A DNA stretch of 64,000 nucleotides from Candidatus Rifleibacteriota bacterium (GCA_012517355.1 JAAYVD010000172.1:64081-128080); one strand, 5' to 3'; positions 5,193-43,582 are shown, counted from the stretch's first letter. Numbers and translations: made by a program. The notes: generated by a model not told the origin, from the sequence alone.

Positions 5193-5223
5193 GCCTCCGC
5201 CTCCCCCCCACGCGGGGTCCGGC

Positions 5224-5913
5224 GTGAACGGGCCCGCTTCCCCGGCCCCTCCTTCGGGGCGTCCGACCGACCGGGGCCGCTCAACAGCCCGTCCGCCTTT
5301 GCCATCCCCGGTCCGGGGATTGCCGTCGCGGGCGGCCTGGATCCTGCCATTGGCCGGGGCCGGGCTGATTTTCGCCCTGGCGCTTGGCGCGAGCCCGGCC
5401 ATCGCGGACGGCCCGCCCGCTGACGTCCAGGACGCGGCCCCGGTCGCCCCCGGTCCGGGGCAGGGCCCGGCCATCCCCGCCGCCGCCCCCTGCCCGCTCG
5501 ACCTGCTTCCCGAGATGCAGCCCCTGCCCGAAGAGGCGACCCTCGACCGCGCCGCCGTCCCGCCGGTCGATGTCGTCGGCGCTTTCCGCGCCGCCTGGGA
5601 ACCGGCGCGTTCGCCCCTGTTGTCCAGTCTGGACACACCACGTTTCGTTGACCTGTCCAGGTGGGCCCGGGGCGAGACGACCAGCTTCGTCCCGCCCGCG
5701 CGCTGGCCCGAGACCCTCGATCTGGAGCCGCTGGGGCGGGACCCGGCCACCGGCCGCTGGTTGTTCGGCCTGCCGCCGGAGCGGTCGCCCGTGGCCCTGC
5801 CCGCCCATTCCCCCCTCGTCTTCCGGCGGGTGGTGGCGTTCGCCTGGTTCGACCCCGGCTCCCGCCGGCTCGACCGGGTGATCCTCACCATCCGCGGCTG
5901 GCGCGAGGAATGA
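5224..5913 (+). CDS. hypothetical secreted protein (start uncertain)
   Basis: High GC3 frame with signal-peptide-like segment RGLPSRAAWILPLAGAGLIFALALGASPAIA-DG; candidate starts GTG 5224 or TTG 5299/5320; ends 31 nt before the moxR RBS. Confidence 0.4.
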   Translation: MNGPASPAPPSGRPTDRGRSTARPPLPSPVRGLPSRAAWILPLAGAGLIFALALGASPAIADGPPADVQDAAPVAPGPGQGPAIPAAAPCPLDLLPEMQPLPEEATLDRAAVPPVDVVGAFRAAWEPARSPLLSSLDTPRFVDLSRWARGETTSFVPPARWPETLDLEPLGRDPATGRWLFGLPPERSPVALPAHSPLVFRRVVAFAWFDPGSRRLDRVILTIRGWREE

Positions 5914-27600: not shown

Positions 27601-28493
27601 ACCTTGGTCGAGGTCAGGGCGGGCACCTGCCCGACCGGGCAGGACTCGCGGAAATCGCAGAAGGGGCAGGCGGACGACCGCACGGGCTGGAACTTCCCCT
27701 GGTAGATCGCTTCCCCGATCTCGAGGTAGGTCTTCTTCCCCTGGGCCAGCAGCGCCGGCGAGCGCTGGACGGTGAGCGCCACCCCCTCGCGCAGGAACAG
27801 GTGGGTGACCTTCTGCACCTTCCCCGGCCAGATCACGTCGCCGGCCAGGAACAGGAGCTGGATGGGCAGACTCTGCGTCAGTTCGGCGGCTCCGCCGGCG
27901 GGGGTCTTCCCGCTCTTGTAGTCGATGATCTCGATCGAGCCGTCGGGATGCTGGTCGACGCGGTCCATGCGGCCGCTGAACTCCCCGCCGAACAGGTCGA
28001 TCTTGAAGAAGTAGTCGATCTCGACCGCCCGGGGCGGGGTCTGGCAGAAGTTCTGGTGGAACAGGCGCAGGGCCGCTTCGGCGTCGTGCCGGAACTGCTG
28101 CTCCTGCTCGGCCGACTCGTAGCCGCGGGAATCCCAGCTGGTGCCCAGCAGCTGCATCAGCTTCTCGAGCTTGAGGGGCTCGTTGGCCCCGCGGCTCTTG
28201 AAGAAGACCTTCAGGGCGGTGTGCAGGCTCTGGTCGAACGACAGGTTGGGCGCGGGGGCGGTTCCCTGCGGCGCCTTCTCGATGTACGAGAAGTGGAACT
28301 TCTTGGGGCAGGTGCGGTAGACCTCGATCTTGCCCGGGGTCAGCGGGATCTTGAATTTTTTCTGGGGCGGGGCGGCCGGTGGGGTGGGGGGCCGCGGCGG
28401 CCGTCCGGGCGGGGCGGCTTCGGGGGGCTTCTTCTCGAGGTTCTCCTTCGTCTTGCGGAACAGCTTCTGGAACAGGTTCGGCTTGTCGGCCAT
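24645..28493 (-). CDS. giant nuclease with five tandem Cas4/AddB-type Fe-S PD-(D/E)XK (RecB-family) modules
   Basis: ORF 24645..28529. Five ~250-aa repeats, each with an N-terminal Cys (CPKKF / CPQKF / CPRKY / CPLKY / CPRAY), motif II G-x-hDRhD, motif III hhDYK(S/T)GK (repeat 3 degenerate: VFVYKTTK) and a C-terminal CxxCx5C triad. Start taken at second Met (28493, GAGGA RBS 7 nt upstream); first Met 28529 overlaps a TATAAT. Confidence 0.85.
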   Translation of the reverse strand: MADKPNLFQKLFRKTKENLEKKPPEAAPPGRPPRPPTPPAAPPQKKFKIPLTPGKIEVYRTCPKKFHFSYIEKAPQGTAPAPNLSFDQSLHTALKVFFKSRGANEPLKLEKLMQLLGTSWDSRGYESAEQEQQFRHDAEAALRLFHQNFCQTPPRAVEIDYFFKIDLFGGEFSGRMDRVDQHPDGSIEIIDYKSGKTPAGGAAELTQSLPIQLLFLAGDVIWPGKVQKVTHLFLREGVALTVQRSPALLAQGKKTYLEIGEAIYQGKFQPVRSSACPFCDFRESCPVGQVPALTSTKVRTFLECPQKFAHYYLHRTAGRAEPAEPSTDLALDRALHDALTALHRDFKPAAHGDPQGYLFARFYEAVPKTFPEETVVLMKETGRELLQLYFKLLYPKSHTRFINEFLSLSTERYDFQITIDRIDEHPDGSLELIDYKTGKSVKDEGELKIDPVSAITCAVAAAKWPGRVKRFTHLYLRAARAVTVEVDEFMTKHGIDLLEDISERMRRKEFETLGGPGCSTCRAATQCQFQALTATTAKIQTLRECPRKYKFRYLERAPVPDKERPALLLNQVVRDVLRDFFALNQSADLEKLYKYYLTRIPTDVSLSLQARQFLEETGKKALKNFLESLEGKRPRVRTLADQARAPFEGVVLSAGFDRVDILPNGNYEVFVYKTTKRPMTVHEAEIDLSGVLTHTVASLTWPGKVERTTFLYLLPGERVVFTPSPRDLERLKLAVSEFQDENARGEFEGNRNPLCPYCDYLDRCEDAKRMLLSPSKINSFLSCPLKYKMNYIDRVPKEPRPTPHLNFDRSLHYALREYHEHFERKMQKVNPFRELLAKHWIDGGYTDWEEEQRFKSRGMQMLEEYFNGLTGEENPVMFETSARWTFDDLDLAVQIDRVDQLPDGKYEIIDYKSGKKIPDERIIHEDMGLLNMYLAASQRWPGQVAKVSYIFLAANKKMSLTPESEHIEAHKKRLRKIVAGITEAKWEPNKGALCAWCEFYNPCPEWKVKPFQMAGETPEVFRKRIRLSYSKMSLYLNCPRAYKRLYLDRVPPKPQPFFSFGTTIHETFEHIYDPGNPRPKPSLEEVLKIYDEVRLTHREGMASEEIEERYRQDGIRQITLYYNRFIKDQPFAPAHSIEDYFELPCGKYAVMTGFIDRIDKLPDGTYEILDYKTEPTMRTQDEVDHDKQLSIYYWACEDALGLKISKLSLFMLDHDAKITTTRTREDVPKVVEQVDKTAYAMINEKEFAPRKNKYCKSCDHLHDCPLKEEVLQDQSLISMKKF

Positions 28494-28530
28494 GGGTGTG
28501 TCCTCGTTTTGCGCGTGGCGATATGCCATC

Positions 28531-28715: not shown

Positions 28716-29339
28716 GTGAGCGTGCAACAGGCTTACGAGATCTGGGGCGCGGCGTTCGAAGACGAAGGGAAGGTGACCTCCGAGTTCGACCGCGAGGTCA
28801 TGCGCATCGTCCTGGGCGGCCGCCGGTTCGGTTCCATTCTCGAGATCGGTTGCGGCACCGGCCGCAATACCCCTGTCCTGGCCGAGATCGGCAACCGCGT
28901 GACCGCCATGGACGTGGCCACCGGCCTGGTCTGGCGCGCCCGCGCCAAGGTCCCCCGCGACACCGTTTCCTACATGATGGCCGATTTCATGCGCTCCTGG
29001 CCGGTGCGCGACTGCGCCTTCGACCTGGTGGTCAGCAACCTGGTCCTCGAGTATGCCCGCGACCTCGAGGCCATCTACCGCGAAGCCGCCCGGGTGCTGG
29101 TGCCCGGCGGCCGCTACTTCCTGTCCGAATTCCACCCGTACCGGCAATGCCAGCGGGTCGGGGCCGCCGTCGGCTTGTACCGCGACGTCGATCCGCCCCC
29201 GACCTTCCTCCACCACGTCTCCGACCACCTGTCCGCCGCCATGGCGGCCGGGTTCTCCCTCGAGCAGCTCAACGAGTGGTGGGAAGGGGTCGAGCACCAG
29301 AAGCCCCCCCGCATGTTGTCCCTCCTGCTGATCCGGTAG
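28716..29339 (+). CDS. class I SAM-dependent methyltransferase (small-molecule/RNA type)
   Basis: Motif I ILEIGCGTGRNT, motif post-I MDVA, motif II FDLVVSNLVLEY; GTG start after AAGGGAGGG; no DPPY/NPPW DNA-MTase motif. Confidence 0.75.
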   Translation: MSVQQAYEIWGAAFEDEGKVTSEFDREVMRIVLGGRRFGSILEIGCGTGRNTPVLAEIGNRVTAMDVATGLVWRARAKVPRDTVSYMMADFMRSWPVRDCAFDLVVSNLVLEYARDLEAIYREAARVLVPGGRYFLSEFHPYRQCQRVGAAVGLYRDVDPPPTFLHHVSDHLSAAMAAGFSLEQLNEWWEGVEHQKPPRMLSLLLIR

Positions 29340-29561
29340 CCCTCCGGCCACCCTTCCGGGATTGGCCGCGGGTTGCTCCGGAACCATCGCGGATCCCCCG
29401 CGGCCACCGCCCGGCACCGGCCAGTCGGGGCCCTGGCCGCCTCCGGCCGCCGTTCGGCACGCATACCCGACCATGCCCGACCATACCCGAAGTTGCCCGG
29501 GTTTGGACGGGCGGTTCCGGTTTTCCCGGCGTTTTCCGCCCGGGAATCGGCGAAATCCCGG

Positions 29562-29591
29562 TTAGGACGTCCGCGGGCCCTGTGCTATAAT
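29562..29591 (+). promoter_or_regulatory. sigma70-type promoter of ornithine-degradation operon
   Basis: TTAGGA, 18 nt, extended -10 TGcTATAAT (29583-29591); about 60 nt upstream of ord ATG. Confidence 0.5.
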
Positions 29592-29650
29592 GGCCCCCTC
29601 GGGGAGACCCGAAACCATCATACCGAAAAGGGAAAGGATTCTTCAAAGGC

Positions 29651-30691
29651 ATGAAACCGATCCGCGTCGTTCAATGGGGCCTGGGCGCCATGGGCAGTGG
29701 CATGTGCAAGCTGATGCTCGAGAAGGAAGGGCTGAAGATCGTCGGAGCCATCCGCAAACGGCCCGACACCGCCGGGAAGGACCTCGGCGAAGTGCTGGGG
29801 CTCAACAAGACCCTGGGCGTCAAGATCACCAACAAGCCCGCCGACGTCCTCAAGAAGGACAACGTCGACCTGGTCCTCCATGCCACCGACTCCTTCACCC
29901 GCTCCTGTTTCGACGAACTGAAGAAGATCATCGAAGCCGGCATCGACGTCATCTCGATCGCCGAGGAGATGGCCTACCCGCACGCCCAGGAACCCGATCT
30001 CGCCAAGGAGATCGACATGCTGGCCAAGCGGCACGATGTCACCGTGCTCGGCACCGGCGTCAACCCCGGCTTCGTCCTCGACGCCCTGGTCATCATGCTG
30101 TCCGGCGCCTGCCTGCGCGTCGACCGCATCGAGGCCAGCCGCATCAACGACCTGTCCCCCTTCGGCGCCACCGTCATGAAGACCCAGGGCGTCGGCACCA
30201 CCCCCGAGGAGTTCGAGGCCGGCCTGAAGAGCGGCACCATCGTCGGCCACATCGGCTTCCCCGAGTCGATCAGCATGATCTCCGACGCCCTCGGCCTCGG
30301 CGTCGACCGCATCGAGCAGCAGCGCCGCCCGATCATCTCCAAGACCCACCGCGAGACCCCGGTCGTCAAGGTGTCGCCGGGCATGGTCGCCGGCTGCGAG
30401 CACATCGGCATCGGCTACCGCGGTCAGACCGAGGTCATCAAGCTGATCCACCCGCAGCAGATCCATCCGGGCAAGGAAGACATCCTGACCGGCGATTACA
30501 TCAACATCTTCGGCGATCCCGACATCCACATGAGCAACAAGCCCGAGATCCCCGGCGGGAAGGGCACCATGGCCGTCGCCGTCAACATGATCCCCATCGT
30601 CAAGAAGGCCGGCCCCGGCCTCAAGCGCATGATCGACCTGCCCATCCCGGCCTGCCTGATGGGAAAGACCGCCTACGACCGGTGGATCTGA
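29651..30691 (+). CDS. ord: 2,4-diaminopentanoate dehydrogenase (DapB-like fold)
   Basis: 346 aa; N-terminal Rossmann MKPIRVVQWGLGAMGSGMCKLM; family call from similarity plus position immediately upstream of ortAB. Confidence 0.85.
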   Translation: MKPIRVVQWGLGAMGSGMCKLMLEKEGLKIVGAIRKRPDTAGKDLGEVLGLNKTLGVKITNKPADVLKKDNVDLVLHATDSFTRSCFDELKKIIEAGIDVISIAEEMAYPHAQEPDLAKEIDMLAKRHDVTVLGTGVNPGFVLDALVIMLSGACLRVDRIEASRINDLSPFGATVMKTQGVGTTPEEFEAGLKSGTIVGHIGFPESISMISDALGLGVDRIEQQRRPIISKTHRETPVVKVSPGMVAGCEHIGIGYRGQTEVIKLIHPQQIHPGKEDILTGDYINIFGDPDIHMSNKPEIPGGKGTMAVAVNMIPIVKKAGPGLKRMIDLPIPACLMGKTAYDRWI

Positions 30692-30692
30692 G

Positions 30693-30980
30693 ATGAGCAC
30701 CGTCCCCACGGGAACCTGGGTCGAGATCGAGAGGGTCATCCTTCGTCCCGACCAACGGGCCCCCAACATTCCGGAAGACACCGCCCGCACGCCCTACGTG
30801 ATGCGGGTCTCCGGGTGGCTCCTGGAGCCGGCTGCCCCCGGGCAGCCGGCCCGGGTCCGCACCCTGATCGGCCGCGAGCTGGCAGGAACCCTGAAGACGG
30901 TCTCCCCCAGCTACACCCACGGCTTCGGCGAGGTCGTTCCCGAGCTGCTCGACATCGGTACCGCGGGAGGGAAGCCATGA
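30693..30980 (+). CDS. ortA: 2-amino-4-ketopentanoate thiolase alpha subunit
   Basis: 95-aa protein between ord and the PLP-dependent ortB; 1-nt gap after ord stop, 4-nt overlap with ortB. Confidence 0.8.
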   Translation: MSTVPTGTWVEIERVILRPDQRAPNIPEDTARTPYVMRVSGWLLEPAAPGQPARVRTLIGRELAGTLKTVSPSYTHGFGEVVPELLDIGTAGGKP

Positions 30981-32383
30981 AACGCGACACCTCCTACGCC
31001 GCCGTCACCGCCCGCAAGAACGAGATCATGAAGGCCTCGCTCGGGGTCGATTTCGACCGCTACGTCACCAGCCCCGTCGCCTTCGACTACGAGCGCCTGA
31101 TGAAAGACACGGGGTACACCCTCGACGACATCGTCCGCATCCAGCGCGAGACCAAGGTGGGCGACACCCCCCTGTTCGAGCTGACCCGCCTGACCGAGGT
31201 GGTCCGCCAGATCAGTCCCCGCGGCAAGGGCGCCACCATCCTCCTGAAGGACGAGGCGGCCAACGCCTCGGGCAGCTTCAAGGCCCGGCGCGCCTCGATC
31301 TCCGCCTACGAGGCGAAGAAGCGCGGCTACGCCGGCGTCATCGCCGCCACCTCCGGCAACTACGGCGCCGCGGTCGCCTCCCAGGCGGCCATGCGCGGCC
31401 TCAAGTGCATCATCCTCCAGGAGGTCTACGACTCGCAGGGGGTCGGCCAGCCCGAGATCGTCGAGAAGGGCCGCAAGTGCGAGGCGTTCGGCGCCGAGGT
31501 CCACAAGCTCACCGTCGGCCCCGAACTGTTCTACTGCCTGCTGCTCGCCCTCGAGGAGACGATGTTCTTCAACGCCTCCCTCTACACCCCGTTCGGCATC
31601 AAGGGCGTCGAGACCCTCGGCACCGAGATCGCCGCCCAGGTGCGGGCCCGCTACCGTCGCGACCCCGACGTCGTCGTCATCACCCACGCCGGCGGCGGCA
31701 ACCTCACCGGCACCGCCCGGGGCCTTTTGGCCGCCGGGGCCGACAAGACCCGCATCGTCGCCTGCTCCGTCGACCTGAGCGGGCTGCACATGGCCTCCGA
31801 CCGCGACTTCAACCGCAAGTCCTTCACCACCGGCCACACCGGGTTCGGCGTGCCCTTCGCCACCTGGCCCGACCGGGTCGACGTGCCGCGCAACGCCGCC
31901 CGCAGCCTGCGCTACATGGACGACTACCAGCTGGTGTCGCAGGGCGAGGTCTTCTACGTCACCGAACTGCTGGCCAAGCTCGAGGGCATCGAGCGCGGTC
32001 CGGCCGGCAACACCAGCCTGACCGCCGCGGTCGCCCTGGCCCGCACCCTCGACCGCGACCAGGTGGTCGTGGTGCAGGAGACCGAATACACCGGCGCCGG
32101 CAAGCACCACAACGCCCAACTCAGCTTCGCCCGGAAGATGGGCGTCGAGGTGCGCCGCGGCGACCCGCGCGAGAACGTGCCGGGGAAGGCGATCGTCATT
32201 CCCGAACGGCTCGAACAGGTCACCGGCCACGGGCAGTCCATGGACAAGCTGCGCGAGTCGTACCTGAAAAACGCGGCGAAGGCCCATCCCGCCAAGAAAT
32301 GGACCGACGCCGACAAGGCCTTCCTGGCCGCCGACGTGAAGAAAGACGTGGCCTGGCTGGAGTCCCGCCTGCGGGAACTCTGA
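30977..32383 (+). CDS. ortB: 2-amino-4-ketopentanoate thiolase beta subunit (PLP-dependent, TrpB-like fold)
   Basis: MKRDTSYAAVTARK...; PLP-lysine region GSFKARRA; ATGA overlap with ortA. Confidence 0.85.
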   Translation: MKRDTSYAAVTARKNEIMKASLGVDFDRYVTSPVAFDYERLMKDTGYTLDDIVRIQRETKVGDTPLFELTRLTEVVRQISPRGKGATILLKDEAANASGSFKARRASISAYEAKKRGYAGVIAATSGNYGAAVASQAAMRGLKCIILQEVYDSQGVGQPEIVEKGRKCEAFGAEVHKLTVGPELFYCLLLALEETMFFNASLYTPFGIKGVETLGTEIAAQVRARYRRDPDVVVITHAGGGNLTGTARGLLAAGADKTRIVACSVDLSGLHMASDRDFNRKSFTTGHTGFGVPFATWPDRVDVPRNAARSLRYMDDYQLVSQGEVFYVTELLAKLEGIERGPAGNTSLTAAVALARTLDRDQVVVVQETEYTGAGKHHNAQLSFARKMGVEVRRGDPRENVPGKAIVIPERLEQVTGHGQSMDKLRESYLKNAAKAHPAKKWTDADKAFLAADVKKDVAWLESRLREL

Positions 32384-32560
32384 CCCCCCGACGGTCCGAT
32401 GGCTGACCCGACAACCGGCATCCCTGGAGGGCTCTCCTCCAGGGATGCTCCCTTCCCGACCCCTCGCCGGGGCCGCCGGCCGCCGGCCCACCCCTGACCC
32501 GGCCGGCGCTTTTCCCCACCCGCACCCCTCAGACCGAGTGAAAGGAACAAGGAAACGAAG

Positions 32561-32920
32561 ATGAACGACGCAGATCGCCTCAAAAAGTTCGAGGAGCGGC
32601 GCGCCGCCCTCAGGAAGCTGAGCGACGACCAGCTCAAGGAACGCTTCTGGGACCTGTGCCGCCAGGCCGTCGAGCCGATGGTCGAACTGGCGAAGACCCA
32701 CACCAGCCCCTCGATCGAGCGGGCCGTCCTGCTGCGCATGGGGGTCGACAGCGTGTCGACCAAGGGCGTGGTCGGCCGCATCCACGAGGCCGGCCTGCTC
32801 GGCCACGGCGCCGGACACGTCGTGTTGAAGGTCAGCCAGAAGTTCAAGACCGACGTTCGCGGGGCGGCGAAGAAGATCGTCGACGACCCCAACTGCCTCA
32901 ACGGCCTGTTCGGGAGGTGA
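32561..32920 (+). CDS. oraS: D-ornithine 4,5-aminomutase subunit S
   Basis: 119 aa; immediately upstream of oraE (4-nt gap). Confidence 0.85.
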   Translation: MNDADRLKKFEERRAALRKLSDDQLKERFWDLCRQAVEPMVELAKTHTSPSIERAVLLRMGVDSVSTKGVVGRIHEAGLLGHGAGHVVLKVSQKFKTDVRGAAKKIVDDPNCLNGLFGR

Positions 32921-32924
32921 ACCA

Positions 32925-35123
32925 GTGAAGAATCTCGATCCCAAGACCAAGATCGACATCGAGGAGATCCTCACCGGGCTCGACACCTACCACCCGCCGC
33001 GCAAGGGCTGGACCTGGCGCGAGCCGGTTCCGGGCGGCTACAAGGTCGGCAAGTTCCACTACAAGACCATGACGAAGCCGCTCAAGCAGTCGGTTCCGCT
33101 GCCGGCCTCGAAGTATTTCGACCACATCGACCCGCAGCCGCAGCCGGTCATCACCACCGAGATCGCCTCCGGGCGGTTTGAAGATGACATCCGGCGCATG
33201 CGCATGGCCGCCTGGCACGGCGCCGACCACATCATGGTCATCCGCACCACCGGCCAGAGCCACATCGACGGACTGCTGGAAGGCACCCCGGAAGGCGTCG
33301 GCGGCGTGCCCATCACCCGCAAGCAGATCCGCGCCAGCCGCAAGGCCTGCGACCTGATCGAGGCCGAGGTCGGCCGGCCCATCAACTTCCATTCGTATGT
33401 CTCGGGCGTCGCCGGCCCCGAAGTGGCCGTCCTGTTCGCCGAGGAGGGCATCAACGGCGCCCACCAGGACCCGCAGTACAACGTGCTGTACCGCAACGTC
33501 AACATGTACCGGTCGTTCGTCGACGCCGCGGAGGCCAAGTGCGTGATGGCCGGCGCCCGCATCTTCCAGATCGACGGGGCCCACAACGCCAACGCCACCG
33601 CCAAGGAAGGCTGGTCGGTCATGCCCGAACTGCTCGTCCAGCACGGCATCAACAGCGCCTTCTCGGTCGCCGCCGGCATGCCCAAGGACCTGATCGGCCT
33701 GTCGACCGTGCCGCCCTGCGCGCCGCCCGCCCCCAAGCTGTGGTACGACCTGCCCTACGCGGTCGCCCTGCGCGATTTCTTCAGCGAGTACAAGATGCGG
33801 GCCCAGCAGAACACCCGCTACATCGAGGCCGACATCGAGGAGGCCACCCGCACCCACGTCATCGACACCCTGATCTCGGCCCTGACCCGGGCCGACATCC
33901 AGAGCACCATCACCCCCGACGAGGGGCGCAACGTGCCGTGGCACTACAACAACATCCGCGGCATCGAGACGGCCAAGCAGACCCTGGTCGCCCTCGACGG
34001 CATCCAGGAACTGGTCAAGATCGACCGCTCGGGGCCGCTCGGCGAGATCGTCCGCGACCTGAAGGAACGCGCCGTCTGCTTCCTCGAGGAACTGATCGAG
34101 GCGGGAGGCTACTTCGCCGCCGTCGAGAAGGGCTTCTTCGTCGACTCGGCGAAATACCCCGACCGCAACGGCGACGGCATCGCCCGCGACGGGAAGGGTG
34201 GGGTGGGGGCCGGCAGCATCGTCAGGCGCGAGGCCGACTACTTCGCCCCGGTCTGCAACCACTTCGGCCACAATCACCCGCCCGCCGGGGTGAAGAAGGC
34301 CTGCGACGTCATCGACGGCTGCACGTTCTGCAAGCCCGACAAGATTGTCTACATCGACGAGCTCGACCCCGGCGACAGCTGCCATGCCCGCCTCGAAAAG
34401 ACCCTTCCCTACCGCAAGGGGGGAATGATCAAGCCCGAGGCCGAGTGGGCCGGCGATGGCACCATGCTGCTGCAGTTCTTCCTGCCCGAGGAGATCGACG
34501 TCGCCCGCGTCGCGGCGCTCGAGATCGCGAAGAAGATGGGCCTGGCCGACCCCGAGGTCATCAACGCCCAGGTCATGCATCCCGCCGAGGGCACCTTCCT
34601 CGAGGTGAAAGGGAAGGTCGACATCGCCATCGACAAGAAGACCCTCAAGATCCCGCCCAAGGAGGTCGTCCTGCCCGAGGACGAGCTGCGCGCCGCGGTC
34701 AAGCAATACGGTTTGCGCGTCGTCGCCGGCACGGTCGGTGAGGACGAGCACTCCGTCGGCCTGCGCGAGATCCTCGACATCAAGCACGGCGGCATCGAGA
34801 AATACGGGGTCAAGTACCACTACCTCGGCACCTCCGTGCCGGTCGGGAAACTGGTCGACGCGGCGGTCGAGACCGGCGCCCAGGCCATCCTGATCAGCAC
34901 GATCATCTCGCACAACGACGTCCACAAGGCGATGATGCGGAAACTGGACGAGCTGTGCCGCGAGAAGGGCATCCGCGACAAGATCATCCTGATCAGCGGC
35001 GGCACCCAGGTCACCCGCGACATCGCCCGCCAGGCCGGCATGGACGACGGGTTCGGCCGCGGCACCAAGGGCATCCACGTGGTCAACTCGATGGTCAAGA
35101 TCCTGCGGCAACGGGGGCGCTGA
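32925..35123 (+). CDS. oraE: D-ornithine 4,5-aminomutase subunit E (adenosylcobalamin- and PLP-dependent)
   Basis: 732 aa; C-terminal B12-binding Rossmann with DxHxxG-like region (VGEDEHSVG); TIM-barrel N-domain. Confidence 0.9.
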   Translation: MKNLDPKTKIDIEEILTGLDTYHPPRKGWTWREPVPGGYKVGKFHYKTMTKPLKQSVPLPASKYFDHIDPQPQPVITTEIASGRFEDDIRRMRMAAWHGADHIMVIRTTGQSHIDGLLEGTPEGVGGVPITRKQIRASRKACDLIEAEVGRPINFHSYVSGVAGPEVAVLFAEEGINGAHQDPQYNVLYRNVNMYRSFVDAAEAKCVMAGARIFQIDGAHNANATAKEGWSVMPELLVQHGINSAFSVAAGMPKDLIGLSTVPPCAPPAPKLWYDLPYAVALRDFFSEYKMRAQQNTRYIEADIEEATRTHVIDTLISALTRADIQSTITPDEGRNVPWHYNNIRGIETAKQTLVALDGIQELVKIDRSGPLGEIVRDLKERAVCFLEELIEAGGYFAAVEKGFFVDSAKYPDRNGDGIARDGKGGVGAGSIVRREADYFAPVCNHFGHNHPPAGVKKACDVIDGCTFCKPDKIVYIDELDPGDSCHARLEKTLPYRKGGMIKPEAEWAGDGTMLLQFFLPEEIDVARVAALEIAKKMGLADPEVINAQVMHPAEGTFLEVKGKVDIAIDKKTLKIPPKEVVLPEDELRAAVKQYGLRVVAGTVGEDEHSVGLREILDIKHGGIEKYGVKYHYLGTSVPVGKLVDAAVETGAQAILISTIISHNDVHKAMMRKLDELCREKGIRDKIILISGGTQVTRDIARQAGMDDGFGRGTKGIHVVNSMVKILRQRGR

Positions 35124-35508
35124 GCCATCCTTCCCCAGCCGCTCCGCCAGAAGATTCCCGGGCTCCGGCCTTCCTGCCGGGGCCCGGGCCATCCTGCGCC
35201 CGCCGCGACGATCCCCGGCCAGGTCCTCGGCAGCACGGCCCCCAGGCGGGCGGGCCCTGGGGGAGTGGCCGCCGGTGGCGTTTCCCGGAGGAACCGGCTC
35301 TCCGGGTTCCCCCGCCTGGACGGTCCGGTGATCGTCCATTCCCCATTCCCGCGACGGGGATCCGAACCCGGGCTTCGGCGTGCCGGCCCTCTTCCCGGAG
35401 GGCGGTCGCTGGGACCCTTCCCGGTTTCCTTGCGGGTCTCCCGGTTTTCCCCCTGGGGGCCTCCCGACAGAACGCCCCCTGCCCACCTCCCCTCGAGGCT
35501 ACTTGTAC

Positions 35509-36855
35509 ATGAATCGCGAAATTGACATTCTGACCATCGAGGTCGGCAGCACCATCACCAAGGCCAACGGGTTCGTGCGGGCAGCCGACGGTCTCCTGCA
35601 GCATGTCGCGCAGGGGTTCGCCCCCACTTCCATCGCCCAGGGCGACGTGGAGATCGGGGTGCGCGGCGCCCTGGCCGAACTGCAGCACACCTCGCGCCGC
35701 CGCCAGGAAGGCGCCGAGGTCTTCGTCAACAGCTCGGCCGCCGGCGGCCTGCGCATGACCGTCCACGGCCTGACCTACAACATGACCGCCCGCGCCGCCC
35801 GCGAGGCCAGCCTGGGCGCCGGCGCCATCGTCAAGCTGGTGACGGCCGGCCGCCTGGCTGCCTCCGACCTGGCCGAGATCCGGCGCCTGCAGCCCAACAT
35901 CATCCTGCTCGCCGGCGGGGTCGACTTCGGCGCCCGGGAGGTCGTCCTCGACAACGCGGCCGACCTCGCCGCCGCCCGCCTCGGCGTGCCCGTCATCTAC
36001 GCCGGCAACGCCGCCCTCGTCGATACCGTCCGGGAGTTCTTCGCCGGGACCGGCAGCGAGGTGCTGGTGGCGCCCAACGTCTTTCCCGACGTCGACGTGC
36101 TCAACGTCGACCCCTTGCGCAAGATCATCCAGGAGGCCTTCGCCCGCCACATCATCCACGCCCCGGGCATGGAAAAACTGCAGCAGCTCACCTCCCGGCC
36201 GGTGCTGCCCACGCCCGGAGCCGTGCTGAAGGCGGCCGAGATCTTCGCCGAGGCGATGGGCGACGTCGTCGTCCTCGACGTCGGCGGCGCCACCACCGAC
36301 GTCCACTCGGTGACCGAGGGCAGCCCGGCGTTCGCCGACAAGCTGACCGACCCCGAGCCGCGCGCCAAGCGCACGGTCGAGGGCGACCTGGGGGTGTTCG
36401 TCAACGCCCGGCACATCTTCGACCTGACCGCCGACGCCCAGTGGCAGGCCCGGGCCGAGGAGGTGCGCGCCATGCCCGCCACCGGACGCGAGCGCGAGGT
36501 CACCCGCTGGCTGTGCGCCCGCGCCGTCGAGGCGGGGATGCGCCGGCACGCCGGCACGCTGCACGACCTGTATACACCGTCGGGCCGCAAACAGATCGTG
36601 CGTGGCAAAGACCTGACCGCGGTGAAGTGGGTGATCGGCACCGGCGGGGCCTTGACCCGCGTCGAGGGAGGCGAAGCCATCCTGCGGGCGATGTGCACCG
36701 GGCCCGGCAAGTTCCTGCTCCCCCAGCCGGAGGCGAAGGTGCTGCTCGACCGGCAGTATCTGTTTTCGGCGATGGGTACCATTGCCGACGCTTGCCGCGA
36801 CGAGGTGCGCACTCTGTTCACCCGCTGGTCCGGGGAGAACGGGGGAAGGCGGTGA
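35509..36855 (+). CDS. GlmL/MutL-family protein (methylaspartate-mutase accessory-like; putative aminomutase reactivase)
   Basis: MNREIDILTIEVGSTITKANGF... ASKHA-like fold hallmarks (DVGGATTDV); position after oraE matches Clostridial or-clusters. Confidence 0.75.
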   Translation: MNREIDILTIEVGSTITKANGFVRAADGLLQHVAQGFAPTSIAQGDVEIGVRGALAELQHTSRRRQEGAEVFVNSSAAGGLRMTVHGLTYNMTARAAREASLGAGAIVKLVTAGRLAASDLAEIRRLQPNIILLAGGVDFGAREVVLDNAADLAAARLGVPVIYAGNAALVDTVREFFAGTGSEVLVAPNVFPDVDVLNVDPLRKIIQEAFARHIIHAPGMEKLQQLTSRPVLPTPGAVLKAAEIFAEAMGDVVVLDVGGATTDVHSVTEGSPAFADKLTDPEPRAKRTVEGDLGVFVNARHIFDLTADAQWQARAEEVRAMPATGREREVTRWLCARAVEAGMRRHAGTLHDLYTPSGRKQIVRGKDLTAVKWVIGTGGALTRVEGGEAILRAMCTGPGKFLLPQPEAKVLLDRQYLFSAMGTIADACRDEVRTLFTRWSGENGGRR

Positions 36856-36929
36856 GCCGGTTCCCTTGGGAACCGAGGAGCAGGGGAATGGGTGAATCGG
36901 GGGAAGGGGCGAGCGGGGCCGGCAGCAGG

Positions 36930-36971
36930 CAAAGGGCGACAGAGCCTTTGGCGGGGAAAATTCTTTTTTTT
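36930..36971 (+). terminator. possible intrinsic terminator after glmL-like gene
   Basis: caaagg-gcgacagag-cctttg hairpin (weak, 6 bp) followed 13 nt later by T8 run. Confidence 0.3.
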
Positions 36972-37018
36972 CGTTCAGATCGGAAAAAACGGTGACTTCC
37001 TGTCGGAGGCCTGGAACG

Positions 37019-37786
37019 ATGAAATTTGACGAACTCGACGCCCGGATGCGGGTGTTCGAAACCTCGCTGGACCAGCACATCGTCCCCGGGATCTTCGTGG
37101 TCGTGCGGCTCGACGGGCGGTCGTTCACCCGGCTGACCAAGGAGACCTCCGGATTCGAGGCCCCATTCGACGTCCGGTTCCGGGACCTGATGATCCACAC
37201 GACCCGGCACCTCATGCATTGCGGCTTCAACGTCGTCTTCGGATACACGCAGAGCGACGAGATCTCCCTGCTGTTCCCGCCCGCGGAAACCCTGTTCGAA
37301 CGCAAGGTCCGCAAGATCCTCTCGATCCTGGCAGGCGAAGCCAGCGCGGCCTTCTCGCTGAAGCTCGGCGCCATCGGGGTCTTCGATGCCCGCATCTGCC
37401 AGTTGCCCACCGGGGACCTGGTCGCCGACTACTTCCGGTGGCGAAGTGAGGATGCCGGCCGGAACTGTTTGAACAGCCATTGCTACTGGCTCCTGCGGAA
37501 AACCGGGGTGTCGGGGAGCAAGGCCTTCCAGCAACTGGCAGGGCTGTCCGTCAGGGAGAAGAACGAATTTCTTTTTCGCCACGACATCAACTACAATGAC
37601 CTTCCCTCCTGGCAGAAGCGCGGAACGGGCCTCTACTGGGAGGAATACCGGAAGAAAGGGTTCAACCCGATGACCAGGCAGGAAGTCGAAGCCACCCGTC
37701 GACGCCTCAAGGTCGACCTGGAACTGCCGATGAAACAGGATTTCGAACGGTTGATCCGCCGCCTGCTGAAAGATCATGGCTGCTAG
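37019..37786 (+). CDS. Thg1-like protein (tRNA-His guanylyltransferase family, 3'-5' nucleotidyltransferase)
   Basis: [49 protein letters not shown] align with eukaryotic/archaeal Thg1 hallmarks ([49 protein letters not shown]). Confidence 0.85.
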   Translation: [255 protein letters not shown]

Positions 37787-38155
37787 GCAACCAATCACCC
37801 CCACCGGACGCCCCTTCCCAGGGCCTTCCCGTCGTTCGCCCTTTCCCTTTTTTCCGCTGGCGCGCCCCGCCGCACCCGCTCCCCTTCCTCTGGATCCTCT
37901 TTCCGGAATGCGGCCCGCTCCTTACGCCTCGGCCGTTACTGTTCCGGTCCCGTTTTTTCCCTTTCTCCCAGTCCTGCCGGTGCATCCAGGCCGGCTCCCG
38001 GTCTCCCCTCGTTTCGGCCGGCCCCGCTCGCCCCTTCTCCCGCTTCCCCCTTTCCCCTCTGCCCGGGCCCCCGTCCCCAAAGTTCGGGCCACCCCGCCAT
38101 GCAACCTCGCTCCAGAACCCCTTGCCTTCCACTCATCCTTCGCCTCCGGAGGTCG

Positions 38156-39241
38156 ATGATGTTCAACCGCACCCCCCGCCTCGAAATCTACCAGGACCGC
38201 ATCTGCGACAACGCCCGAGCCATTGCCAGGCTCTGCCATGAGCACGGGGCGCAGCTCGCCTGCGTCACCAAGGTCTCCGCCGCCCACCCCTCGGTGGCCG
38301 AGGCCATGATCCAGGCCGGCTCTGACATGCTCGCCGACTCGCGGGTCGCCAACCTGTGGGCCCTGCGTGGCCTGGGCTTCCGCGTCCCCCTGATGCTGCT
38401 GCGCCTGCCCGCCCCCTCCGAGGCCTACGAGGTGGTCCAGGCCGCCGACTACAGCCTGAACTCCGGCCTGCCGACCCTGCGCGCCCTCTCCGAGGCCGCC
38501 CGCGCGCAGCGGGTCGTCCACAAGGTCATCCTCATGATCGACGTCGGCGACCTGCGCGAAGGCGTCTGGCCCGACCGCGCCGTCGAAGTGGTGAAGACCG
38601 CCCGGGACCTGCCCAACCTCGAAGTGGCAGGCCTCGGCTGCAACCTCGCCTGCTACGGCGGCGTGATCCCTTCCGTCGAAAACATGCTCAAGCTGGTCCA
38701 GGTCCGCGACCTCTGTCGCCGCGAAACCGGGCTTCCCCTCAACCTCCTGTCCGGCGGCAACAGTTCCGGGTTGCCCCTGCTCGCCTCGGGGAAGATGCCC
38801 AAGGAGATCAACCACTTCCGCGTCGGCGAGGCGATCCTGCTCGGCCGCAACGTCATCGACCGCTCCCCCTTCCCCGGCACCCGCCAGGATACCGTGATCG
38901 GGGTCGGCCAGGTCATCGAACTGGAGCGCAAACCCTCGATCCCCATCGGAGACCGCGGCCAGGACGCCTTCGGCGGCACCACCTCCTTCGTCGACCGCGG
39001 AGTCCGGTGGCGCGCCATCTGCAACCTCGGCCGCCAGGACGTGGTGGTCGACGGCATCGCCCCCGTCGATCCGCGGGTCATCGTGCTGGGCGGATCGAGC
39101 GACCACCTGCTCGTCGACGTCGAGGACGTCACGCCCCATCTCGAAGTGGGAGGCGAGATCGCCTTCTACCCGGGCTACGGCGCCCTGTTGGCCCTGTCGA
39201 CCTCGCCCTACGTCCACAAGTTCGTGATCCGGGGGAAATGA
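38156..39241 (+). CDS. orr: ornithine racemase (alanine-racemase-fold PLP enzyme)
   Basis: MMFNRTPRLEIYQDRICDNARAI... alanine racemase N-terminal TIM-barrel fold; GGAGG RBS; called Orr rather than a generic racemase from cluster context and 4-nt overlap with alr. Confidence 0.7.
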   Translation: MMFNRTPRLEIYQDRICDNARAIARLCHEHGAQLACVTKVSAAHPSVAEAMIQAGSDMLADSRVANLWALRGLGFRVPLMLLRLPAPSEAYEVVQAADYSLNSGLPTLRALSEAARAQRVVHKVILMIDVGDLREGVWPDRAVEVVKTARDLPNLEVAGLGCNLACYGGVIPSVENMLKLVQVRDLCRRETGLPLNLLSGGNSSGLPLLASGKMPKEINHFRVGEAILLGRNVIDRSPFPGTRQDTVIGVGQVIELERKPSIPIGDRGQDAFGGTTSFVDRGVRWRAICNLGRQDVVVDGIAPVDPRVIVLGGSSDHLLVDVEDVTPHLEVGGEIAFYPGYGALLALSTSPYVHKFVIRGK

Positions 39242-40368
39242 CCATGCTGTACCAGACCCACGCCCGCGTCCACCTGCAGAACATCCGGTTCAACATCGAG
39301 GGGATCCGCGAGGCGGTCGGACCCGACCGCAAGATCCTTCTCGCCGTCAAGGCCAACGGCTACGGCCACGGCGCCGTCGAGGTCTCGCGGATGGCCGAAC
39401 GCATCGGGGTCGACTGGCTCGGAGTGGCCACCGTCCCCGAGGGCATCCAGTTGCGCGAAGCCGGCATCCGGCTGCCCATCCTGAAGTTCAGCCCCGCCTT
39501 CCCCGAGGAGATGGAAGCCGCCGTCCGGCACGCAATCGCGCTCTCCGTCTGCGATGCCGCCAACATCGCCGAACTCGAGGCGGTGGCCGGCCGGCTCGAC
39601 CAGCGGGTGGCGGTCCATCTCAAGGTCGACAGCGGCATGGGCCGCATCGGGGTGGCTTGCGAGCAGGCCCCCGACATGGCGGCCACGATCGAGAAACGCT
39701 GCCCCCACCTGTTCCTGGAAGGGGTGTTCACCCACCTGCCGGTCAGCGACGAATTGAACAAGATGTTCACCCAGCGCCAGGTGGCCGCTTTCAAAAAGAC
39801 CGTCGACACGATCGAAAGCCAGATCGGCCGCAAGATCCCCCTGGTGCACGCGGCCAACTCCGGCGGCATCCTCGCCCACCCGGAATCCTGGCTGAACATG
39901 GTGCGGCCGGGCATCATGCTGTACGGGTTCTACCCGTCCCACGAGACGCCGCAGACCGTCCCGCTCAAGCCGGGGCTCTCCTTCCTGACCCGCGTCTCCT
40001 TCCTGAAACAGGTGAAGGCCGGCACCTCGATCGGCTACGGCCGCAGCTGGATCGCCCCCGAAGACACCTGGATCGCCACTTTCCCGGCCGGCTATGCCGA
40101 CGGGTTCAACCGGCTGTTTTCGAACAAGGGCCGGGTTCTCATCAATGGCCGCAGTGCTCCGGTGGTCGGCCGGGTCTGCATGGACCAGAGCATGGCGAAC
40201 CTCGGGCCCGAAACGGACGTGAAGGTGGGCGACGAGGTCGTTCTCATCGGCCAGTCGGGAACCGAAAGCATCTCCGCCTACGAGTGGGCCGGCGCGCTGG
40301 GAACGATCACCTACGAGGTGACCTGCCAGATCAACGCCCGCGTTCCACGGGTGTACGATCCCTACTGA
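39238..40368 (+). CDS. alr: alanine racemase
   Basis: PLP-lysine motif AVKANGYGHG, full-length Alr similarity; ATGA overlap with orr stop. Confidence 0.9.
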   Translation: MTMLYQTHARVHLQNIRFNIEGIREAVGPDRKILLAVKANGYGHGAVEVSRMAERIGVDWLGVATVPEGIQLREAGIRLPILKFSPAFPEEMEAAVRHAIALSVCDAANIAELEAVAGRLDQRVAVHLKVDSGMGRIGVACEQAPDMAATIEKRCPHLFLEGVFTHLPVSDELNKMFTQRQVAAFKKTVDTIESQIGRKIPLVHAANSGGILAHPESWLNMVRPGIMLYGFYPSHETPQTVPLKPGLSFLTRVSFLKQVKAGTSIGYGRSWIAPEDTWIATFPAGYADGFNRLFSNKGRVLINGRSAPVVGRVCMDQSMANLGPETDVKVGDEVVLIGQSGTESISAYEWAGALGTITYEVTCQINARVPRVYDPY

Positions 40369-40746
40369 TCTCCGCCCGGAACCCCGATGCCCGTCGGGTG
40401 AATTCCCCGGGGTCCAGGGTTTCCGGCCGCCTGAGGATTGTAGGCGCCTGCGGTAGGGGGCGGCGAAGGGCCAGATCGTCCCCCGCGATCTGGGCAACCC
40501 CTGGATGCAGGATGGGCGCGGGGTCGTCGCGACACGAGACCAGGGCGACCCACGGAGCGGGAGGCATGGGACAGGCCTGGGGCGGGATGACCCCCTGCCT
40601 TCCCTCCCGGGTTCCCAACCCCTTTTCACCACTTCCCAACTTCCTGCTCCCACCCCACCCAAGGATGCCACTTCGCCACCTCCCCATCCCCCGATTCCAT
40701 TTTCCCCCATCGCCACTCCCCACTCCCCACTCCCCTGAATCTTTCA

Positions 40747-40775
40747 TTGACTCGGGGGGGCATGGGCTATACAAT
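40747..40775 (+). promoter_or_regulatory. sigma70 promoter for tldD (TTGACT-17-TACAAT)
   Basis: Near-consensus hexamers with 17-nt spacer, about 28 nt upstream of tldD ATG 40803. Confidence 0.55.
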
Positions 40776-40802
40776 CCCAACCAATTCACCATGGGGTAGG
40801 AA

Positions 40803-42239
40803 ATGAAAGATCAACTGCTGAAGATCGTGGATTATGCCCGGTCGCTCGGGGCGCAGTATGCCGACGTCCGGTTCATCCACGAGGAGAACGAGATCCTGAC
40901 CGTGAAGAACGGCCGGGTCGAGGGTATTTCCAAGATCGATGACGAAGGGTTCGGCGTCCGGGTCCTGATCGACGGCGCCTGGGGATTCAGTTCCGGACCG
41001 TCGCTTCCGCTCTGGGAGCGCATCGTCCGCGAGGCGGTGGAGGTGGCCCGCTGCTCCGGGCTGGCCCGCAAGGAAGGCGGCATCCGGTTCCCCGCCGCCT
41101 CCGCCGTCACCGACCACTACCGGACCCCGTTCGTCGAGGACCCCTTCGCCCTCCCGCTCGAAGAGAAGCTGGCCCTGATGATGAAGGCCGACGCCGCGGC
41201 CCGCCAGGTTCCCGACCTCAAGGTGGTCCGCACCTCCCTCGGCTTCCTGCGCATCGACAAGCACTTCGCCAGCACCGAAGGGTCCTACATCCACCAGGAA
41301 CTGATGGAGTCCGGCGGCGGCATCGAGTGCACCGCGATCGGCAACGGCGAGGTGCAGAAGCGCAGCTATCCGAATTCCTTCGGCCGCCAGCAGCTGACCG
41401 GCGGGTTCGAGCACATCCGTGCCATGGACCTGCCCGGCCATGCGCACCGCATCGCCGAGGAGGCCCGGGCGTTGCTGACCGCCCCCACCTGCCCGGCCGG
41501 CACCACCACCATCATCCTCGACCCCACCCAGCTGGCCCTGCAGATCCACGAATCGTGTGGCCACGCGGTCGAGCTCGACCGCGCCCTGGGCATGGAGGCC
41601 AGCTACGCCGGAACCTCCTTCCTGACGCCCGACAAGGCCGGCCGGTTCCGCTACGGGTCCGACCTCGTCAACCTCTACCAGGACGGCACCGTCCGCAACG
41701 GGCTGGGCACCTTCGGCTACGACGACGACGGCATGCCCGCCTGCCGCACCGACATCGTGAAGAACGGACAGTTCGTCGGCTACCTGTCGAACCGCGAGAC
41801 GGCCGCCGAGATCGGCCATGCCACCAGTGCCGCCAACCGCGCCTGCAGCTGGAACCGCATCCCCATCGTGCGCATGACCAACGTCAACCTCGCCCCCGGC
41901 ACCTGGGCCTTCGACGACCTGGTCGCCGACACCAGGGAGGGCCTCTACCTGGTCACCAACAAGTCCTGGTCGATCGACGACAAGCGGCTCAACTTCCAGT
42001 TCGGCACCGAACTGGCCTACGAAATCAAGGACGGAAAGCTGGGCCGCATGCTGAAGAACGCCACCTACACCGGCATCACCCCCGAGTTCTGGGCCAACTG
42101 CGATGCCATCTGCAACGAGAAGCACTGGGGCCTGTGGGGAACCCCCAACTGCGGCAAGGGCGAGCCCTCCCAGATCGCCCACGTCGGGCACGGCTGCGCC
42201 CCGGCCCGGTTCCGCAACGTGCGCGTGGGGGTGGCCTGA
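40803..42239 (+). CDS. tldD: TldD metalloprotease
   Basis: 478 aa; HExxxH-like motif IHESCGHAVELD; Gly-rich C-terminal signature. Confidence 0.9.
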   Translation: MKDQLLKIVDYARSLGAQYADVRFIHEENEILTVKNGRVEGISKIDDEGFGVRVLIDGAWGFSSGPSLPLWERIVREAVEVARCSGLARKEGGIRFPAASAVTDHYRTPFVEDPFALPLEEKLALMMKADAAARQVPDLKVVRTSLGFLRIDKHFASTEGSYIHQELMESGGGIECTAIGNGEVQKRSYPNSFGRQQLTGGFEHIRAMDLPGHAHRIAEEARALLTAPTCPAGTTTIILDPTQLALQIHESCGHAVELDRALGMEASYAGTSFLTPDKAGRFRYGSDLVNLYQDGTVRNGLGTFGYDDDGMPACRTDIVKNGQFVGYLSNRETAAEIGHATSAANRACSWNRIPIVRMTNVNLAPGTWAFDDLVADTREGLYLVTNKSWSIDDKRLNFQFGTELAYEIKDGKLGRMLKNATYTGITPEFWANCDAICNEKHWGLWGTPNCGKGEPSQIAHVGHGCAPARFRNVRVGVA

Positions 42240-43582
42240 TGCTCGGCAAGGAACGCTGCGAACAGGTCCTGAAGGAAACCCTGCAGGCCGCCCGCCCGGC
42301 CGACGAGGCCGAGGTGCTGGTGATGACCAACGAGAGCGGGCTGACCCGCTTCGCCGAGAACTCCATCCACCAGAACGTCGTGGAGCGCAACGCCCAGGCG
42401 TTCGTCCGGGTGGTGCTCGGCAAAAAGCTCGGCCACGCCAGCACCAACCGCGTCGATGCCGACGGGCTGCGGCAGATGATCGAACGCGCCCTCCAGATCG
42501 CCCGCCTGTCCGAAGACAACCCCGACTTCGGCGGCCTGCCCGACGACGGCCGCCCGGTGCCCGTCATCGACGTCTTCCGCCCGTCCACCGAACGGTACAC
42601 CCCGCGCCGCCGGGCCGAGGCGGTGGCCCGCCTGATCGGCGCCTGCCGCGGCAAGGGCCTGCGCGCCTCGGGCGCCTTCGAGACCGGCCTGCGCGAGTTC
42701 GGGGTGGCCAACTCGAAAGGCATCTTCCGCTACCAGCCCGCCACCACGGCCGACTTCAACACCGTCGTGATGTCCGACGACAGCTCGGGCGTGGCCAACG
42801 CCAGCGCCCTCGACGTGCACGAGCTCGACGTCGACGCCCTCGCCGCCGAGGCCATCGACAAGGCCGAGCGCAGCCGGTATCCGATCGACCTGCCGGCCGG
42901 CGACTACCCGGTGGTGCTCGAGGAATACGCCGTCGCCAACCTCGTCGGCTTCCTCGGCTACCTGGGGTTCAACGGCACCGCCTTCCGCGAGGGCCGCAGC
43001 TTCCTCAACGAGAAACGCGGCCAGCTGGTCGCCGCGCCCGCCGTCTCGATCTGGGACGACGGCCTCGATCCGCGCGGGCTGGCCCAGCCGTTCGACTTCG
43101 AAGGCGTGCCCAAGCAGCGGGTCGACCTGATCAAGGCCGGCGTGGCCGGCGACCCCGTCTGGGACTCCTACAACGCCCGCCTGGCCGGGGTGCCCAACAC
43201 CGGCCATGCCCTTCCCGCCCCCAACTCCTTCGGGCCGATCCCGCTCAACGTCTTCATGGCCCCCGGCCCCACCCCCAAGGCCGACCTCGCCAAAGGCATC
43301 GCCCGGGGCGTCTGGGTCACCCGGTTCCACTACGTGAACCCGCTTCAGCCCAAAAAAACCCTGCTGACCGGCATGACCCGCGATGGCACCTTCCTCATCG
43401 AGAACGGGCAGGTGACCCGCGGCGTCAAGAACATGCGGTTCACCGCCTCCATCCTCGACGCCCTCAGCCGGGTCGAGGCGGTCGGTTCCTCCACCCGCTG
43501 CTCCATCAACTCCTGGGGCAGCACTTCGGTTCCCGCGCTGCGGGTCGGGTCGTTCGCCTTCTCGGGCGTCACCCAATTCTGA
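42239..43582 (+). CDS. pmbA: TldE/PmbA-family protein (TldD partner)
   Basis: 1-nt overlap with tldD stop; PmbA/TldD-fold similarity, lacks HExxxH. Confidence 0.85.
   Translation: MLGKERCEQVLKETLQAARPADEAEVLVMTNESGLTRFAENSIHQNVVERNAQAFVRVVLGKKLGHASTNRVDADGLRQMIERALQIARLSEDNPDFGGLPDDGRPVPVIDVFRPSTERYTPRRRAEAVARLIGACRGKGLRASGAFETGLREFGVANSKGIFRYQPATTADFNTVVMSDDSSGVANASALDVHELDVDALAAEAIDKAERSRYPIDLPAGDYPVVLEEYAVANLVGFLGYLGFNGTAFREGRSFLNEKRGQLVAAPAVSIWDDGLDPRGLAQPFDFEGVPKQRVDLIKAGVAGDPVWDSYNARLAGVPNTGHALPAPNSFGPIPLNVFMAPGPTPKADLAKGIARGVWVTRFHYVNPLQPKKTLLTGMTRDGTFLIENGQVTRGVKNMRFTASILDALSRVEAVGSSTRCSINSWGSTSVPALRVGSFAFSGVTQF

Follow-up and report, generated by a model that had tools for sequence, protein, structure and literature searches.

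The window analysed here is a stretch of 64,000 nucleotides (nt) from a Candidatus Rifleibacteriota bacterium (GCA_012517355.1 JAAYVD010000172.1:64081-128080), and within it, at 29651-40368 on the + strand, lie nine genes: ord, ortA, ortB, oraS, oraE, or-4, a Thg1-like gene, orr and alr. Apart from the Thg1-like gene, all of these had been claimed by a first-pass annotation, and all eight are present and supported by family models as a predicted cluster for oxidative (Stickland-type) ornithine degradation whose last member encodes an alanine racemase (Table 1). The closest relative, locus L081 (a contig of a Candidatus Ozemobacter metagenome-assembled genome (MAG), GCA_020725785.1), is collinear with the window at ~82% nucleotide identity. 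Since the G+C content of the window is ~67%, reading frames were picked by third-position GC (GC3). Among the first genes, 1 nt lies between the ord stop and the ortA start, as read at the junction in the sequence, ortA and ortB overlap by ATGA, and 4 nt separate the oraS stop from the GTG start of oraE.

Table 1. Genes and other features of the predicted ornithine degradation cluster, in window coordinates (aa, amino acids; PLP, pyridoxal phosphate; AKP, 2-amino-4-ketopentanoate).
Feature	Position	Strand	Details
Tandem CCCGACCAT(G/A) repeats	29466-29490	+	~75 nt upstream of the -35 region; conserved in the window, L081 and L068
Promoter-like site	29562-29591	+	TTAGGA 29562-29567, 18-nt spacer, extended -10 TGcTATAAT 29583-29591
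ord, 2,4-diaminopentanoate dehydrogenase	29651-30691	+	346 aa; NF040740, PF19328
ortA, AKP thiolase small subunit	30693-30980	+	95 aa; NF040739, PF22010
ortB, AKP thiolase PLP subunit	30977-32383	+	468 aa; NF040741
oraS, D-ornithine 4,5-aminomutase small subunit	32561-32920	+	119 aa; PF16552
oraE, D-ornithine 4,5-aminomutase large subunit	32925-35123	+	732 aa, GTG start; NF040743
or-4, GlmL/MutL-like accessory protein	35509-36855	+	448 aa; PF13941, NF040744
Inserted cassette	36882-38058	+	42-bp inverted repeat arms 36882-36923 and 38017-38058; contains the Thg1-like gene
Thg1-like gene	37022-37786	+	PF04446, PF14413
orr, ornithine racemase	38156-39241	+	361 aa; NF040742
alr, alanine racemase	39244 (or 39238) to 40368	+	374 aa (or 376 aa); TIGR00492, PF01168, PF00842

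Equivalog calls were judged against the curated NCBIfam cut-offs, with a Pfam scan alongside, and four of the core proteins lie above these: Ord scores 532.7 bits on NF040740 (cut-off 400), OrtA 104 bits on NF040739 (cut-off 70), OrtB 802.5 bits on NF040741 (cut-off 550) and OraE 1317 bits on NF040743 (cut-off 800). OraS scores 132.8 bits on PF16552 (OAM_alpha) and matches OraS of Acetoanaerobium sticklandii (PDB 3KOW_E, E = 9e-26), and the alignment of OraE with the solved A. sticklandii structure (3KOW_A, 1068 bits) is full-length, with both the DxHxxG cobalamin motif, here EDEHSVG (His609), and the PLP lysine, Lys620 (DIK), falling on the corresponding residues of that structure. The lysine 5,6-aminomutase models, for which the cut-offs are 600 and 280 bits, reach just 150 and 134, and Ord and OrtAB likewise matched the ornithine equivalog models, not lysine-pathway enzymes. 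Or-4 scores 477 bits on PF13941 and occupies the same position, between oraE and orr, in every complete cluster examined; the name reactivase, first proposed for it, is a tentative one. Comparison of the products with A. sticklandii-type clusters, which the first-pass annotation had suggested, was made with three Firmicute references, namely a Peptostreptococcaceae MAG (with 91% identity between its OraE and that of A. sticklandii), Alkaliphilus metalliredigens and Clostridium aceticum. All seven core proteins of the window match these full-length at 40-64% identity (Ord 46-54%, OrtA 42-45%, OrtB 61-63%, OraS 44-45%, OraE 63-64%, Or-4 43-46% and Orr 40-44%). At the level of sequence, the cluster is thus confirmed as a complete and essentially ordinary oxidative ornithine degradation pathway.

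A study of 2025 defines ornithine racemases by a catalytic cysteine (Cys164 of Salmonella OrnR), at the position of which alanine racemase has a threonine, using a catalytic tyrosine instead (PMC13397332). In the window Orr the equivalent Cys166 (in NLACYGG) and the PLP lysine, Lys39, are invariant in 56 cluster Orrs and conserved in the Firmicute Orrs, and PF01168 alone is detected, with no Ala_racemase_C domain. The sole solved structure related to Orr is that of YhfX (4KBX), at 29.5 bits and E = 3e-6, as against 383 bits on the Orr model, so the protein does not group with YhfX-like proteins, a possibility that had been raised for it. The start of orr is probably best placed at 38156, with the longer open reading frame (ORF) from 38099 less likely to be used, because a GGAGG ribosome-binding site lies 4 nt upstream of 38156 and the Orr homologue of L081 is also 361 aa long. 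The Peptostreptococcaceae reference (L164) has a second Orr-like gene, at 4327-5421, between a sigma-54 activator gene and ord; its product contains Ala_racemase_N only, is 38% identical to the window Orr and conserves both the lysine and the cysteine.

By its two domains (PF01168 and PF00842) and its catalytic residues, the predicted Alr is a canonical alanine racemase. It scores 368 bits on TIGR00492 (cut-off 168), its lysine (AVKANGYGHG) and tyrosine (SIGYG) are invariant in 37 sequences and align to the solved Alr 4LUY, and it is closer to Firmicute-type Alr structures such as 4LUY/4LUS (281 bits) than to DadX. At the junction with orr, the ATGA overlap previously described does exist, at 39238-39241, but it probably does not provide the alr start that is used, as 28 of 36 aligned Alr homologues begin with the N-terminus MLYQT, which corresponds to ATG 39244, 2 nt past the orr stop. 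ATG 39238 is retained as the alternative, and an overlapping start is obligatory in some lineages only (L007, L022, L074). Whichever start is used, translational coupling of orr and alr is likely.

The question of whether alr belongs to the cluster was addressed with an OrtB-anchored scan, one genome per species, which gave 80 loci, of which 54 carry orr and 52 of those have enough downstream sequence to be assessed. The next gene after orr on the same strand is alr in 36 of the 52, and also in L081; across these 37 loci the orr-alr gap is at most 25 bp in 26 and a 4-bp overlap is found in four. Alanine dehydrogenase and aminotransferase genes were sought after alr, and no family recurs there in more than four of the 37 loci, so that alr marks the 3' end of the conserved unit. 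An aminotransferase gene follows alr in two Holophagae-group loci alone, L082 (Mesoterricola silvestris) and L008 (Holophagaceae); in M. silvestris, which is cultured, an ornithine carbamoyltransferase gene precedes the cluster and the aminotransferase gene directly follows alr. A reciprocal scan of metagenome contigs, this time with Alr as the anchor, gave nine assessable Alrs at least 58% identical to that of the window, six of them encoded directly after orr and one near a cluster; of 69 Alrs no more than 52% identical, none adjoins orr. Furthermore, a neighbour-joining tree places all 45 orr-adjacent Alrs within a single clade of 48 tips, their mean pairwise identity across phyla (65%) is close to that of Orr (64%) and Or-4 (66%), and Alr divergence correlates with OrtB divergence (Spearman 0.63). 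The Firmicute clusters, one of them from a close relative of A. sticklandii, end at orr without alr in all three cases examined, as had been stated for clusters of the A. sticklandii type. Most clusters outside Firmicutes thus have alr as a conserved and monophyletic eighth gene, and it is not peculiar to the window, which bears out the claim that it is an integral, tightly coupled member. The conserved linkage, the single Alr clade and the contrast with Firmicutes together support a role for alr as a dedicated operon member that would act on the D-alanine product. No description of alr as a member of this cluster was found in the searchable full texts, the founding paper of Fonknechten et al. 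2009 lying outside that search, and the cluster-linked alr is apparently an undescribed, modest variation on a known pathway.

We propose a model for the region that most reasonably fits these observations, and consider it likely: oxidative, Stickland-type degradation of L-ornithine in a relative of Ca. Ozemobacter, yielding acetyl-CoA, ammonia and D-alanine, the last of which Alr would then convert to L-alanine. By homology, Orr would racemise L-ornithine to D-ornithine by means of its Lys/Cys acid-base pair, after which OraS and OraE, with adenosylcobalamin and PLP, would shift an amino group to give (2R,4S)-2,4-diaminopentanoate. Ord is expected to deaminate this oxidatively to 2-amino-4-oxopentanoate, which OrtA and OrtB, with coenzyme A (CoA), would cleave to acetyl-CoA and D-alanine, and Or-4 would serve as an accessory protein of the mutase. 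The D-alanine, formed stoichiometrically, would be turned by Alr into L-alanine, which may enter general metabolism by way of an aminotransferase or alanine dehydrogenase whose gene lies outside the cluster; A. sticklandii, which is without alanine dehydrogenase, instead excretes D- and L-alanine (PMC3091704). Transcription would start at the conserved extended -10 promoter upstream of ord, and we infer that the ancestral arrangement had all eight genes as a single unit with alr last, into which, in the window, the Thg1-like cassette was inserted between or-4 and orr.

The putative promoter on which this model draws is present as first described, TTAGGA and TGcTATAAT at a spacing of 18 nt, and is conserved in relatives. 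Its motif is invariant in L081 and L068 though the surrounding bases differ, TGNTATAAT is found once in 64 kb against 0.02 expected, four Riflebacteria loci (L020, L031, L081 and L068) have TG(C/A)TATAAT at a distance of 68-111 nt upstream of ord, and TGCTAAAAT-like sites occur in some Anaerolineae clusters. A generic sigma-70 scan, which detects near-consensus sites only, does not list the site because its -35 hexamer is weak, matching at 3 of 6 positions; on the basis of its conservation, the promoter call is a reasonable one. Further upstream, the tandem CCCGACCAT(G/A) repeats are kept in the window, L081 and L068 while the flanking bases diverge, and they may represent an operator, or binding site of a regulator. 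That a single promoter controls all eight genes in the window is uncertain, since the Thg1-like cassette separates orr-alr from the first six genes.

This cassette had been missed when orr and alr were described as simply following further downstream, and the operon is in fact interrupted between or-4 and orr. The element is ~1.2 kb long with 42-bp, 90%-complementary inverted-repeat arms, and the segment 36831-38145 of the window is without counterpart in L081. No Thg1 homologue was found in any of the 80 comparison loci and no transposase was found for the cassette; nor could a target-site duplication be defined between the window and L081, as their or-4/orr intergenic regions are too diverged to align. 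The nearest long-contig homologue of the Thg1-like protein (tRNA-His guanylyltransferase family), at 73% identity, is encoded in a BREX/integrase/HicB island beside an AAA_33 kinase gene, a partner that the window copy does not have. The element looks like a small mobile cassette outside the ornithine pathway. The interval between alr and tldD, a spacer of 435 nt in the window, is occupied in L081 by a Transposase_31 (Rpn-family) gene (18201-19211 of that locus), so that with the Thg1-like cassette both flanks of orr-alr are sites of lineage-specific insertion.

Several observations weigh against the proposed model. The match of Orr to NF040742 spans model positions 2-350 of 351 (E = 1e-114), and its bit score is under the cut-off of 480; Or-4, for which NF040744 is the best family and the match full-length, similarly stays at 535 bits under a cut-off of 600. 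No adjacent alr is present in 16 of the 52 orr-bearing loci, from which it follows that alr is not obligatory for the pathway, and no alanine dehydrogenase or obvious alanine aminotransferase was recognised in the cluster or among the scanned genes of the window. Finally, a hairpin followed by a T-run, read by eye at ~36930-36975 upstream of the Thg1-like gene and not listed by the terminator scan, may, in combination with the insertion itself, uncouple orr-alr from the ord promoter. If so, the pathway in the window would be split, with transcription terminated by the cassette after or-4, orr-alr silent or expressed weakly or separately, and the cluster partly disabled and requiring D-ornithine. 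An insertion that L081 does not share, the hairpin with its T-run, and the failure of the promoter scan to find a consensus sigma-70 site upstream of orr would all fit such a split, but we regard it as unlikely given that orr and alr are intact, with a strong GC3 coding signature and all catalytic residues kept, that a good GGAGG site precedes orr, and that, of the two scans, the one for terminators passes over the hairpin and the one for promoters would see near-consensus sigma-70 sites only.

The absence of alr from 16 of 52 clusters, which manage without it, together with the canonical domains and catalytic residues of the window Alr, would also be expected if the gene encoded a housekeeping alanine racemase that supplies D-alanine for peptidoglycan, works from L to D or in either direction, and lies next to orr by chance. 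We think this quite unlikely. The orr-adjacent Alrs are a single clade over at least five phyla, at 51-97% identity, and their divergence tracks that of the cluster genes, which is not what one would expect of a housekeeping gene passed on vertically; the closest Alrs without such linkage are just 40-52% identical and never adjoin orr; and the tight coupling to orr, by a gap of at most 25 bp or an overlap, is conserved. Moreover, an L-to-D supply role makes little sense beside a pathway that already yields excess D-alanine. The score of Orr below its NCBIfam cut-off, and the overlapping specificities of racemases of the Orr superfamily (PMC13397332), could be taken to mean that Orr racemises lysine/arginine, or basic amino acids over a broad spectrum, and that the cluster processes another diamino acid. 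This is very improbable, as its partners OraE, Ord and OrtAB are matched at equivalog level, with the lysine 5,6-aminomutase models far under their cut-offs, and as Orr is syntenic with the Orr of the Firmicute ornithine clusters, to which it is 40-44% identical and with which it has the Lys/Cys pair in common. The degradation of L-ornithine through D-alanine to L-alanine by a complete cluster is our preferred reading of the locus.

Around the cluster, a methyltransferase-like ORF lies upstream and ends at 29339, in the translation of which a motif of the S-adenosylmethionine-binding type was read by eye, and for which the Pfam scan matched no family. Downstream lie tldD (40803-42239) and a pmbA-like gene (42239-43582), which have their own promoter-like site (40747-40775). 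Among window genes, no pathway-related neighbour was found save a distant gene of the Na+:alanine symporter family (PF01235, 437 bits) at 61917-63545 on the - strand, 21 kb from the cluster, whose product could import or export alanine. On the other side, at 24645-28529 (-), a 1294-aa protein with five stretches matching the PD-(D/E)XK nuclease family PF12705 is encoded; it is conserved in L081, and its gene contains internal DNA repeats, seen as self-matches in the comparison with L081 and L068. Within the cluster, the spacer between oraE and or-4 (35124-35508) is 385 nt long as against ~45 nt in L081. Its fold is no more stable than that of shuffled sequence (z = -0.40), and the ~340 extra bases have no Rfam match and no repeat copy within the window. 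A cobalamin riboswitch had been thought plausible, yet Rfam at gathering thresholds gave no match in the whole window, and a permissive search of 29300-40900 returned just one chance microRNA match (E = 0.28); tRNAs were looked for alongside these RNA elements and none was found.

The best OrtB matches, at 93% and then 90% identity, the latter to Candidatus Ozemobacter sibiricus (Riflebacteria), head a set of more than 8000 homologues that span at least six phyla. The first-pass annotation had found a high-GC, non-clostridial host notable in itself. The 80 OrtB-anchored loci, however, come from Anaerolineae, Holophagae, Thermoanaerobaculia, Spirochaetota, Actinomycetota and Riflebacteria, and with the same cluster found across these six groups such a host is unremarkable; indeed, the ornithine pathway has already been called widespread (PMC13397332). 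Within Riflebacteria, ten loci (L020, L031, L043, L047, L048, L054, L056-L058 and L061) have ortA-ortB without oraSE, or-4, orr or alr within 10 kb, five of which (L020, L031, L056, L058 and L061) also carry ord, and in L020 a 371-aa protein with B12-binding_2 and B12-binding domains follows ortB. In these lineages the ornithine pathway may be split or differently fed.

A further arrangement was observed in the metagenome loci L105, L108, L115 and L127, where paralogues of OrtA and OrtB (OrtB at 61-63% identity to that of the window) are paired with a different Alr (44-47% identical) and there is no ord, oraSE or orr. The neighbouring genes encode SnoaL-like proteins, an M28/M20 peptidase and a branched-chain-type ABC transporter, with an XRE-cupin regulator in two of the loci, and the pairing may represent an undescribed pathway built around the couple of AKP thiolase and alanine racemase. 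On a broader scale, it seems to us about as probable as its opposite that an eight-gene module, forming acetyl-CoA and L-alanine and equipped with a dedicated clade of orr-adjacent Alr, prevails outside Firmicutes, in place of the seven-gene archetype of clostridia, and has moved as one unit from phylum to phylum; the second pairing, of OrtAB paralogues with another Alr, would then make this couple a reusable one, employed also in an undescribed pathway.

The locus is not a new kind of system, as the chemistry is that of the textbooks and the genes are already automatically annotated in public genomes. The ornithine pathway is, however, usually described from clostridia, with D-alanine as an excreted end product, and our data suggest that its commonest form outside Firmicutes brings its own alanine racemase. 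For the amino-acid fermenters of sludge, sediments and aquifers, habitats with abundant Anaerolineae, Holophagae and Riflebacteria, other products, carbon yields and cross-feeding would then be predicted: if the Alr is indeed dedicated, ornithine breakdown in carriers of the cluster would yield usable L-alanine and not excreted alanine. For annotation we offer the rule that an Alr of the orr-adjacent clade, encoded beside orr, be read as a catabolic and not a cell-wall enzyme. The cultured carriers Mesoterricola, Geothrix and Mobilicoccus make the idea directly testable.

Among known systems, the Salmonella operon of STM2358 (OrnR) and a D-ornithine/D-lysine decarboxylase uses a racemase of the same family with the Lys/Cys pair, but it leads to putrescine, and its OrnR is ~40% identical to OrnRs of the catabolic clade (PMC13397332). 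The cluster of Acetoanaerobium (Clostridium) sticklandii and Clostridioides difficile consists, as far as it is relayed from Fonknechten et al. 2009 by later papers (PMC3091704, PMC8803604, PMC13397332), of orr, oraS, oraE, ord, ortA, ortB and or-4. The window has the same seven families, in the order ord-ortA-ortB-oraS-oraE-or4-orr that it shares with the three Firmicute clusters, and the cofactor and catalytic residues are conserved in its proteins; it differs from clusters of this type in appending an alr coupled to orr, which all three Firmicute clusters are without, and in bearing the lineage-specific Thg1-like insertion. Control also appears to differ, with a gene for a sigma-54 enhancer-binding protein upstream in the three Firmicute clusters, and a TGGCA-N7-TGCA site upstream of ord in two of them (L165 and L166), where the window has a putative extended -10, sigma-70-type promoter instead. 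An alanine racemase dedicated to a pathway and encoded in a catabolic operon is known from the proteobacterial DadX/DadA system, in which DadX feeds D-alanine to the D-amino acid dehydrogenase DadA; the flux there is opposite to that proposed here, and on the DadX model, with its cut-off of 600, the window Alr reaches 156 bits. Finally, without the Thg1-like cassette and the ~340 extra bases between oraE and or-4 that mark the window, the same eight-gene order, closing with orr-alr, is found in the Ca. Ozemobacter genome GCA_020725785.1, in Mesoterricola silvestris (AP027080.1), and in Anaerolineae, Thermoanaerobaculia, Spirochaetota and Mobilicoccus.

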